Source: Escherichia coli (GTDB lineage Bacteria > Pseudomonadota > Gammaproteobacteria > Enterobacterales > Enterobacteriaceae). Taken from it: DNA of 64,000 bases. The stretch is taken from NCBI RefSeq assembly GCF_001677475.2, contig NZ_CP015229.1; one strand, 5' to 3'. Position numbers and translations under genes: made by a program. Each line of letters starts with the position of its first letter. The stretch's first letter is position 1. Positions 23,903 through 27,044 of this stretch are shown here, in pieces. Under the pieces are notes generated by a model. It worked only from the letters and a program-made list of their open reading frames with translations, ran no database searches and was not told where the DNA came from.

Positions 23903-25030
<1,128 letters not shown>

Positions 25031-25472
25031 TTATGTTGGCGTTTTCTATTCAGTATAGAAGTGGGAGCGACTGGGCGAGATGCGGAAGTTCTGGAATGTT
25101 TCTTTTTTTGGTGATGGTGAACTGATTGTGACTGAAGAAGTTTGGCTACTTTTGCAATGTGACAAGTTATGGCAGAGCTGGCTGGTGGCGAAGAATTTTG
25201 ACGATTGAGGCATGCAGAAAAAAACGGGTTCAGCTTCAGTTGATCAAATGAGGAGTGAGAAGTCTGAAACAGGACTAACTGTATAAATAAACAGCTATTT
25301 TGCTGAGGAAGGGTAAGATAACGGCGGGTGCCTGAAGCTTTCCGGTTTCAGGTTTACTCTGAGGTCTGGAAAGATGAAGCCCCAGGAGATATTTCTATCA
25401 ACCCTGGGGCTGCCACTCCAAACCCGAACAATTTGGATGGTAGTCCCTTCTTCGCATGGAGGCAATATAAAC

Positions 25473-25625
25473 ATGCTGACGAAATATGCCCTTGTGGCAG
25501 TCATAGTGCTGTGTTTGACGGTACTGGGATTTACGCTTCTGGTCGGAGACTCGCTGTGTGAGTTTACGGTGAAGGAACGTAATATTGAGTTTAAGGCTGT
25601 TCTCGCTTACGAACCGAAGAAGTAG
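25473..25625 (+). CDS. hokE: Hok-family membrane toxin, copy 1
   Basis: ATG at 25473; 50 aa [50 protein letters not shown], typical Hok single-TM toxin. Confidence 0.85.
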
Positions 25626-25876
25626 CCGTTGTGCGGGGAGTAATCCCCGCATATCCGGTTGTCAGGTCAGGGTGGTAAGGCACCTGCTTTACACTTTCGC
25701 CCGCGGTCAGCAATGGCTGCGGGCGATGTCGTTTTAAGGGCAATGATCAGTTTTGCCAACAGAAGTCCGAAACAGGATTCACTGTATAAATAAACAGCTA
25801 TTTTGCTGAGGAAGGGTAAGATAACGGCGGGTGCCTGAAGCTTTCCGGTTTCAGGTTAACTCTGAGGTCTGGAAAG

Positions 25877-26065
25877 ATGAAGCCCCAGGATGATATTTCT
25901 ATCAACCCTGGGGCTACCTACCCAAACCTGAACAATTTGGATGGTAGTCCCTTCTTCGCATGGAGGCAATATAAACATGCTGACGAAATATGCCCTTGTG
26001 GCAGTCATAGTGCTGTGTTTAACGGTGCTGGGATTTACGCTTCTGGTCGGAGACTCGCTGTGTGA
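25877..26065 (+). CDS. mok-like overlapping reading frame, copy 2
   Basis: 62-codon ORF ([12 protein letters not shown]...) starting upstream of and overlapping hok copy 2 in a different frame, the arrangement of mok in hok/sok systems; assignment rests on arrangement only. Confidence 0.45.
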
Positions 26066-26129
26066 GTTTACGGTGAAGGAACGTAATATTGAGTTTAAGG
26101 CTGTTCTCGCTTACGAACCGAAGAAGTAG
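25977..26129 (+). CDS. hokE: Hok-family membrane toxin, copy 2
   Basis: ATG at 25977; 50-aa product identical to copy 1. Confidence 0.85.
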
Positions 26130-26250
26130 CCGTTGTGCGGGGAGTAATCCCCGCATATCCGGTTGTCAGGTCAGGATGGTAAGGCACCTGCTTTACACTT
26201 TCGCCCGTGGTCAGTGATGGCTGCGGGCGAATCGTACCAGATGTTGTCAA

Positions 26251-26871
26251 TTAATCGTGTTGGCACAGCGTTATGACTATTTTTTCTTTTATCTGCCAGT
26301 GCACAGCAAACTGCTCATCCTCTAGTCGAATGATGATCTGCTGTTTATTCCAGCTAATTATCTGATAATCCAGAAAACCTTGAGCGGCCTGTATCTTGCT
26401 TGCCTTAAATGCGCTCTCTTTGGCGGAAAATGCCAGTGTCAGCGCCAGAGAAAAGGTTAAACCGCATTCTGCGAGTCGCTCGTGTTCTGCTGGTGTAATA
26501 ATGTTGTCTGTCAATTCTCTTGCGGTTTGTACAGAGAAAATCTCTTCGATATCAATGCCAATCGGTTGACGAGTTACCACGGCTAATGCCGTAGCCCCAC
26601 AGTGGCTAATACTGCCGTATACCTCCGCAGGCCACACAGGTTGGCGTAGCTCGCCGATTGCGGGCACACATTTATAGCCATATTCCCGCAGCGCATAAAC
26701 TGCAGCGATCCGTCCGGCTAAATGCTCTGTTTTACGTTTACGTCCAGCGTGTTGCAGTTGTGCGTAGTGCGGCAGCCAGAGTAAATCCTGCTCGCGAAAA
26801 CTCGCCGGATCAAACTCAACAAAATGCAGCGTATGTCCTGCAAAGGGGAGGGAGGTATGCGTAGTTTTCAT
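26251..26871 (-). CDS. entD: Enterobactin synthase 4'-phosphopantetheinyl transferase EntD
   Basis: Start trimmed to MKTTHTSLPFAGHTLHF (cat at 26869..26871); 206 aa. Confidence 0.9.
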   Translation of the reverse strand: MKTTHTSLPFAGHTLHFVEFDPASFREQDLLWLPHYAQLQHAGRKRKTEHLAGRIAAVYALREYGYKCVPAIGELRQPVWPAEVYGSISHCGATALAVVTRQPIGIDIEEIFSVQTARELTDNIITPAEHERLAECGLTFSLALTLAFSAKESAFKASKIQAAQGFLDYQIISWNKQQIIIRLEDEQFAVHWQIKEKIVITLCQHD

Positions 26872-26908
26872 GTCGACCATATTAGAGAATGATGACAAAC
26901 GCAAAACT

Positions 26909-27006
26909 GCCTGATGCGCTACGCTTATCAGGCCTACGTGGTCCTGCAATATATTGAATTGGCAAGATTTTGTAGGCCGGATAAGGCGTTCACGCCGCAT
27001 CCGGCA
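26909..27006. repeat. REP/BIME element (two inverted REP units) between entD and fepA
   Basis: gcctgatgcgctacgcttatcaggcctac ... tgtaggccggataaggcgttcacgccgcatccggca; classic enterobacterial REP sequences. Confidence 0.75.
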
Positions 27007-27044
27007 TGAACGACGCGCACTTTGTCAACAATCTGACGTTAGCA

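Follow-up and report, generated by a model that had tools for sequence, protein, structure and literature searches.

The two tandem hokE/sokE units of the window (the whole 64,000-nt stretch of DNA that was analysed) differ by one base in the leader of the hok mRNA, and this difference is likely a structure-neutral length polymorphism between two otherwise complete modules, neither of which gives an indication of being deregulated. The hokE/sokE system and its tandem islets are already known, and the indel is an ordinary allele. We propose that it would be an old 1-nt length polymorphism tolerated by the structure of the leader RNA, with little or no regulatory consequence, in which case units 1 and 2 would be functionally equivalent. 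The original prediction had held that the copies are likely not equivalent in translational control and that one of them may be deregulated or inactive; the sequence comparisons given below do not support this, as the frames upstream of hok vary between loci and the indel appears nearly neutral.

Both units sit between ybdK (23903–25021, minus strand) and entD (26251–27000, minus strand), the interval that is also the chromosomal site of hokE/sokE in K-12. They are direct repeats with a spacing of 503/504 nt and 97% identity (repeat families D1/D2 and pairwise alignment). Delimited by the direct repeat and Rfam, unit 1 (25258–25727, plus strand) comprises the promoter region, the hok mRNA, and the terminator stem, and unit 2 occupies 25761–26231 on the same strand. 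Their leaders match Rfam RF01794 at 25326–25481 (84.4 bits) and 25829–25985 (86.8 bits), respectively, both above the gathering score of 59. The hokE ORF of unit 1 (25473–25625, plus strand; ORF list, Pfam, and homologous annotations) encodes 50 aa behind a Shine–Dalgarno (SD) sequence, GGAGG, at 25458–25462, and the ORF of unit 2 (25977–26129, plus strand; ORF list) encodes an identical 50-aa protein. Pfam HOK_GEF (PF01848) covers residues 38–79 of the 83-aa ORF described below, which correspond to Hok residues 5–46, with an E-value of 1.1e-7; the NCBIfam Hok models match Hok with scores under their curated cut-offs, and homologous E. coli loci carry the annotation hokE. A single match spans at least 80% of the two-unit region in 3,365 of 5,426 complete E. 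coli genomes, and PGAP calls two hokE genes in the E. coli loci matching this region.

The hok mRNA of unit 1 closes with a 3' terminal stem-loop (25697–25726, plus strand; terminator scan), and its inverted-repeat counterpart in unit 2 lies at 26201–26231. The stem-loop of unit 1 runs into the T-run TGTCGTTTTA (25697–25736) and was called as a terminator, whereas the corresponding stem in unit 2 leads into AATCGTACCAG (26201–26240) without a T-run, so the end of the unit 2 transcript may differ. A consensus promoter scan called zero sigma-70 sites in the locus, and the hok and sok promoters are therefore placed by homology and position only; the putative sok promoter would consist of TTGCCT, a 17-nt spacer, and TACCAT. 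Antisense ORFs overlap hok in both units (25398–25652, minus strand, 84 aa in unit 1; 26019–26156, minus strand). Their E. coli counterparts are annotated by PGAP as "hypothetical protein", often flagged as frameshifted or with an internal stop, and the antisense ORF had zero NCBIfam matches; it is probably spurious, a by-product of conservation in the hok region. In addition, an Rfam ES036/CssrF match (26930–26971, minus strand; 42.2 bits against a gathering score of 37.6) overlaps the 5' end of the entD ORF, adjoined by a sub-threshold REP-like naRNA4 match at 26975–27016.

Pairwise alignment of the hok mRNA regions of the two units leaves exactly one gap. Unit 1 reads CCCCAGGA-GATATTT, with the gap at 25387/25388; the sequence of unit 2 is CCCCAGGATGATATTT, which has an extra T at 25891 (plus strand), a site that is not a homopolymer. 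Because of this extra base, an ATG upstream of hok shares the hok frame in unit 1 but is shifted to the +1 frame in unit 2. The ATG of unit 1 (25374–25376, plus strand) lies 99 nt before the hok ATG and opens an 83-aa ORF (25374–25625), while that of unit 2 (25877–25879, plus strand) lies 100 nt before the hok ATG (100 mod 3 = 1) and opens a 62-aa ORF (25877–26065) that ends 89 nt past the hok ATG, both as given in the ORF list. In unit 1 the +1 frame opens only at a GTG (25328–25561, plus strand; 77 aa). The 1-nt indel, both ATG frames, and the GTG-initiated ORF had all been described in the original prediction and were all confirmed by the alignment and the ORF list. As a mok start, the GTG at 25328 was dismissed since it lies 3 nt into the mRNA, within the tac element. 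The T at 25891 also makes an additional ATG at 25890 (AGGATGATA) in the hok frame, which opens a 13-codon ORF ended by a TGA specific to unit 2 (25929–25931); E. coli has no ATG of this kind because it carries C at the inserted position.

Both length states are common in nature. Of the 5,426 complete E. coli genomes, 4,196 contain a 40-mer that is centred on the unit 1 state, lacks the extra base, and cannot seed on the other length state, and 2,735 carry the longer state with C at the inserted position. Alignment and genome counts give the extra base as T in the window and as C in E. coli and Escherichia whittamii. In a motif scan across genera that took one genome per species, the motif without the extra base, CCCCAGGA-GATATTTCTATCAA, was found in Escherichia albertii, six Klebsiella, two Atlantibacter, Pluralibacter, Pseudescherichia vulneris, and an Enterobacter metagenome-assembled genome (MAG), and among the scanned species representatives the extra base occurred only in E. 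whittamii, as C. The frequency of both states in genomes, together with the extra C in E. whittamii, marks the indel as an old heritable polymorphism. Furthermore, between the upstream ATG and the hok ATG the leader of unit 1 matches that of K-12 hokE without a difference; on these comparisons, the unit 1 length state is ancestral and of the K-12 type, and the unit 2 state is derived within Escherichia.

The exact T allele of unit 2 was found in none of the 5,426 complete E. coli genomes, which is what would be expected if the indel were a sequencing or assembly error in one of the repeat copies. The chance of such an error is nonetheless negligible, since the same extra position is occupied, as C, in 2,735 independent genomes and in E. 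whittamii, and the site is not homopolymeric. The best match of the window among the same genomes has 97.4–97.6% identity over 24 kb (14000–38000), so the window comes from a diverged Escherichia lineage absent from that genome set, and a T/C substitution is to be expected at about 97.5% identity. T25891 itself reflects a substitution of this lineage at the inserted site and, in the +1 frame, is a synonymous change (GAT/GAC).

In nature, the upstream ATG keeps no constant frame relative to hok. Among 23 intact units from 15 genomes, the distance from this ATG to the hok ATG is 98 nt in five, 99 nt in ten, and 100 nt in eight. At 98 nt the ATG opens a 22-aa ORF whose stop lies 29 nt short of the hok ATG, at 99 nt it is in frame (one of these units has an early TGA), and at 100 nt its frame is +1 and gives the 62-aa ORF. 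All 23 units retain an intact Hok ORF of 50 aa. The 98-nt state is due to another 1-nt indel, located in the SD/dcb hairpin loop (25423–25431; CCAAACCCGAACAA versus CCAAACCAGACAA). Counts of exact haplotypes among the 5,426 genomes gave about 2,174 and 1,110 in frame, about 1,986 in the +1 frame, and about 654 with the short ORF; the haplotype of unit 1 is the commonest. Any of the three frame states can occur in genomes with a single unit. A fixed place for each unit type, proximal to ybdK or to entD, was considered and rejected, as the order differs between strains and recombinant haplotypes exist. A point against the tolerance that we propose is that chromosomal hok loci are perhaps under weak selection, and the variability of the frame could then reflect decay rather than tolerance.

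The upstream ATG does not lie at the canonical mok start. On plasmid R1, mok starts at position 116, approximately 9 nt after a GAGG SD, and hok at 174, which places the two starts 58 nt apart and out of frame (PMC9841398). The mokB and mokC of K-12 start 58 and 57 nt upstream of their respective hok genes, and in the Rfam alignments the AUGs of the R1-type, hokB, and hokC loci all fall in the 5' arm of the SD/dcb hairpin. At this position the sequence is CAAAC in both units of the window, without a start codon, and the same column is CAAAC or CGAGC in all sampled Escherichia hokE units, with ATG, GTG, and TTG absent. The ATGs at 25374 and 25877 align 5' of ucb, approximately 42 nt upstream of the canonical column. 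Across 17 leader sequences from seven genera, no start codon or ORF was conserved in both position and frame. An invariant ATG 36 nt before hok was not read as a start: its frame differs from genus to genus, and it coincides with both the dcb arm and the putative −10 of sok (TACCAT). Our literature search found nothing usable on mokE or on translation of the hokE leader.

These positions bear on the claim that unit 2 has the proper mok/hok arrangement while unit 1, with its ATG fused in frame to hok, is deregulated or inactive. The frames are as originally described, and unit 2 shares the +1 frame of R1 mok (58 mod 3 = 1; PMC9841398), so the "expected mok arrangement" ascribed to unit 2 holds for the frame; it does not hold for the start, whose position is not homologous to that of R1. 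A defect of unit 1 is very unlikely. The alignment with characterised loci that had been suggested as the way to find the canonical copy identifies unit 1, the copy under suspicion, with K-12 hokE and with the ancestral state, and its haplotype is the one most often encountered. The ATG in question stands some 42 nt 5' of the canonical mok start, in-frame mok genes are found in mokC, in Klebsiella, and on an IncFII plasmid, and the remaining regulatory elements and the predicted fold are common to both units. An in-frame upstream start, judged from these sequences, is not aberrant.

The extra base falls in the ucb/mok-SD hairpin, which RNA folds place at 25378–25411 (plus strand) in unit 1, as a closed-form anti-SD structure with the indel site 25387/25388 in an internal loop, and at 25881–25915 (plus strand) in unit 2, where T25891 pairs with A25904. 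As folded in both units, the hairpin has an outer stem of AGCCCCAGG/CCUGGGGCU, an inner stem of GAUA/UAUC, and a UUUC loop; the added U pairs with an A on the opposite side of the loop, and the inner stem of unit 2 is thereby lengthened from 4 to 5 bp. The hairpin energies are −20.7 kcal/mol with no extra base (unit 1), −22.0 kcal/mol with T (unit 2), and −20.3 kcal/mol with C. In an alignment of 17 leaders from seven genera the hairpin is almost invariant, with 94% of its cells paired, and the indel column is unpaired. Modelled in this way, the indel is structurally near-neutral for the hairpin. By analogy with R1, hairpins of the 25378–25411 type would be the closed form, in which ucb (GCCCC) sequesters the mok-type SD (GGGGC) (PMC9841398).

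The full-length mRNAs of both units are predicted to adopt the same closed fold, in which the 5' end is paired with the 3' fold-back. In the minimum-energy folds, computed in silico, the 5' GCGGGUGCCU pairs with the 3' AGGCACCUGC (tac/fbi), with z-scores of −8.1 and −8.5. The open form has a mok-SD/dcb hairpin, placed in unit 1 at 25406–25447 (plus strand) from covariation and from the Rfam alignments. Its covariation amounts to five pairs and 19 double-change cells, matched by 0 of 500 shuffles. The SD of Escherichia hokE in this hairpin is GGGG, not GAGG, and a U-to-C change in the dcb arm compensates for it (pair 88/128: eight G–C versus eight A–U). Taken together with the sequence alignments, the constraint on the leader appears to be one of RNA structure, not of coding.

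The upstream ATG itself deserves separate consideration, as it is invariant: it was found in every Escherichia unit sampled, with GAGG 9 nt on its 5' side, a pattern that counts against a wholly inconsequential indel. In the corresponding column, ACG is found in Klebsiella and Pluralibacter, where the canonical mok ATG is retained, and TTG or GTG in Pseudescherichia and the Enterobacter MAG, neither of which has the canonical ATG. The upstream ATG could therefore be a relocated mok start. Under such a relocation, the ATG at −99/−100 would be the mok start of Escherichia hokE and the loop indels would be natural switches with three outcomes. In frame, the ATG would give an N-extended Hok together with coupling; in the +1 frame, a classical Mok-like leader; and in the −1 frame, an upstream ORF ending before the hok SD, with hok uncoupled or silent. 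We hold a relocation of this kind to be unlikely, though it is the main alternative. The ATG lies within the segment complementary to SokE, facing the U-rich 3' tail of the antisense RNA, and the beta haplotype pairs the insertion with a TGA in the frame thereby abandoned. In the predicted folds of the leader and of the full-length mRNA, however, a strong 5' hairpin sequesters the GAGG and the bases up to the ATG, which are also paired in the Rfam consensus structure; this consensus is taken, by analogy with the R1 model, to represent the processed open form. Atlantibacter is without either start, about 654 genomes carry the short-ORF state with hok intact, and each of the three frame states is found as the sole unit of a genome. 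The fuller proposal, that hokE has lost canonical mok, uses the −99 ATG, and is toggled by two loop indels among three outcomes to give heritable differences in toxin translatability, is rated as decidedly unlikely.

The structure-tolerated polymorphism that we prefer also accommodates some use of the upstream ATG. If it were translated, the in-frame reading of unit 1 and the +1 reading of unit 2 would both be open across the hok ribosome-binding site, and such an open reading is the only mok requirement established in R1 (PMC9841398). Mutagenesis of R1 showed that mok translation is needed up to the hok SD and is dispensable beyond the hok start, and that Hok is no longer made when mok ends prematurely upstream of hok (PMC9841398). 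The last of these findings also provides an argument against our reading, as the frame and the position of the stop could matter if mok has been relocated.

The minus strand of the ucb/mok-SD hairpin is the terminator hairpin of SokE. SokE of unit 1 (25370–25429, minus strand) was mapped from K-12 sokE (b4835), using the K-12 annotation of sokE at 607733–607792 (minus strand) and hokE at 607836, and SokE of unit 2 (25873–25933, minus strand; 61 nt) is placed by homology. Both fold into a 5' tail, a hairpin, and a U-rich end (the tail UUCAUCUUU in unit 1). The leader segments complementary to the SokE 5' tail, 25412–25426 and 25916–25930, show five to six differences, reading GCCACTCC...CCCG in unit 1 and ACCTACCC...CCTG in unit 2. 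For the 22-nt Sok 5' tail, the predicted duplexes have −46.2 and −42.8 kcal/mol when cognate and −28.5 and −29.2 kcal/mol when non-cognate; for full Sok–leader duplexes the predictions are about −125/−123 and −104/−105 kcal/mol, respectively. Cognate tail duplexes that are approximately 15 kcal/mol stronger in these models suggest a partial insulation of the two modules.

From these energies it might be argued that the indel acts at the level of RNA–RNA recognition and, with the tail substitutions, helps to insulate the modules, giving each SokE a preference for the hok mRNA of its own unit. The predicted cognate duplexes, tail and full, are indeed more stable than the non-cognate ones. Such a role for the indel is nonetheless highly improbable: the five to six tail substitutions, and not the single bulge in the hairpin, give most of the discrimination, non-cognate pairing is still strong, and recombinant haplotypes mixing indel state and tail type exist. 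It is because these unit-specific substitutions explain most of the cognate/non-cognate difference that we give a role of the indel in Sok specificity little weight.

A further difference between the units was observed in their 3' UTRs, where 25673 (G) and 26176 (A) are the sole substitution in the segment GGTCAGG[G/A]TGGTAAGG. In the full-length folds this segment pairs with a unit-specific leader segment (GCCACUCC or ACCUACCC), and the models suggest that the substitution may represent long-range 5'–3' covariation within each unit. The leaders of Atlantibacter RC6 and of the Enterobacter MAG carry ACCATCC, the exact complement of GGATGGT.

For the window, a frame that differs upstream of hok should not be taken to mean that one copy is defective, nor does the upstream ATG justify the annotation of an 83-aa "N-extended Hok". 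More generally, annotators may bear in mind that the frame and position of mok are evolutionarily labile, that the canonical mok site of Escherichia hokE holds no start codon, and that what the leader conserves is RNA structure for both strands. The absence of a canonical hokE mok start, the three-state ATG, and the in-frame mok of Klebsiella are useful though unsurprising to specialists. If the upstream ATG is used, the three-state frame polymorphism would offer a natural allele series for studies of translational coupling.

Among the known systems, the closest is hokE/sokE of K-12 (b4415/b4835), which occupies the same genomic site, has a leader identical to that of unit 1, and encodes a Hok that differs by one residue (A8 in K-12, V8 in the units of the window). 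The single unit of K-12 is interrupted by IS186, which lies 18 nt past the hok stop and removes the 3' fold-back element of hokE, whereas the window has two intact units and no IS. In E. coli AR_0150, IS150 is inserted within the region of the hokE leader hairpin, and the insertion sequences that disrupt or flank the hokE units of AR_0150 and K-12 fit the known IS inactivation of chromosomal hok loci. The tandem hokE loci of other E. coli resemble the window in that units with and without the extra base both occur; they differ in that the inserted base is C instead of T and in that the order and combination of units depend on the strain. Recently, hok "islets" of two to six copies have been described as the product of local duplication, and the authors of that study found mok hard to assign (bioRxiv 10.1101/2025.08.07.668861).

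The units resemble plasmid R1 hok/sok in the tac stem, the ucb/SD and SD/dcb hairpins, the 5'–3' fold-back, the antisense Sok complementary to the leader, and the toxin of the Hok/Gef family. They depart from it in the start region: R1 has a GAGG SD and a mok AUG at −58 (PMC9841398), while the units of the window have a GGGG SD and no start there, their only upstream ATG with a long ORF being that at −99/−100. The IncFII plasmid NZ_CP128973.1 (locus L017, 294–509) has a mok ATG at the canonical position, −57, which is in frame and gives a 71-aa product. Its Hok is identical to what we take to be the R1 Hok sequence. With −57 in frame on this plasmid and −58 in published R1, the mok frame varies among R1-type plasmid loci. 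A chromosomal precedent for unit 1 is K-12 hokC/mokC (gef), in which mokC, as annotated, is in frame with hokC, shares its stop, and gives a 69-aa N-extended HokC; the two differ in that mokC starts at the canonical −57, covered by the 5' end of SokC, while the ATG of unit 1 is at −99, opposite the 3' tail of SokE.

The hokE-like loci of Klebsiella and Pluralibacter, the nearest relatives outside Escherichia, have an alignable leader, a closely related Hok, and an identical 22-nt inner hairpin motif without the extra base. Unlike Escherichia hokE, they keep the GAGG SD and the canonical mok ATG. In five Klebsiella species this ATG is in frame at −51; in Pluralibacter it lies at −50, and the reading frame ends ahead of the hok SD. 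The ucb/SD hairpin of these loci is less stable, at −13.0 versus −20.7 kcal/mol. Judged by this alignment, Escherichia appears to have changed GAGG to GGGG with a compensatory change in dcb and to have lost the canonical ATG.
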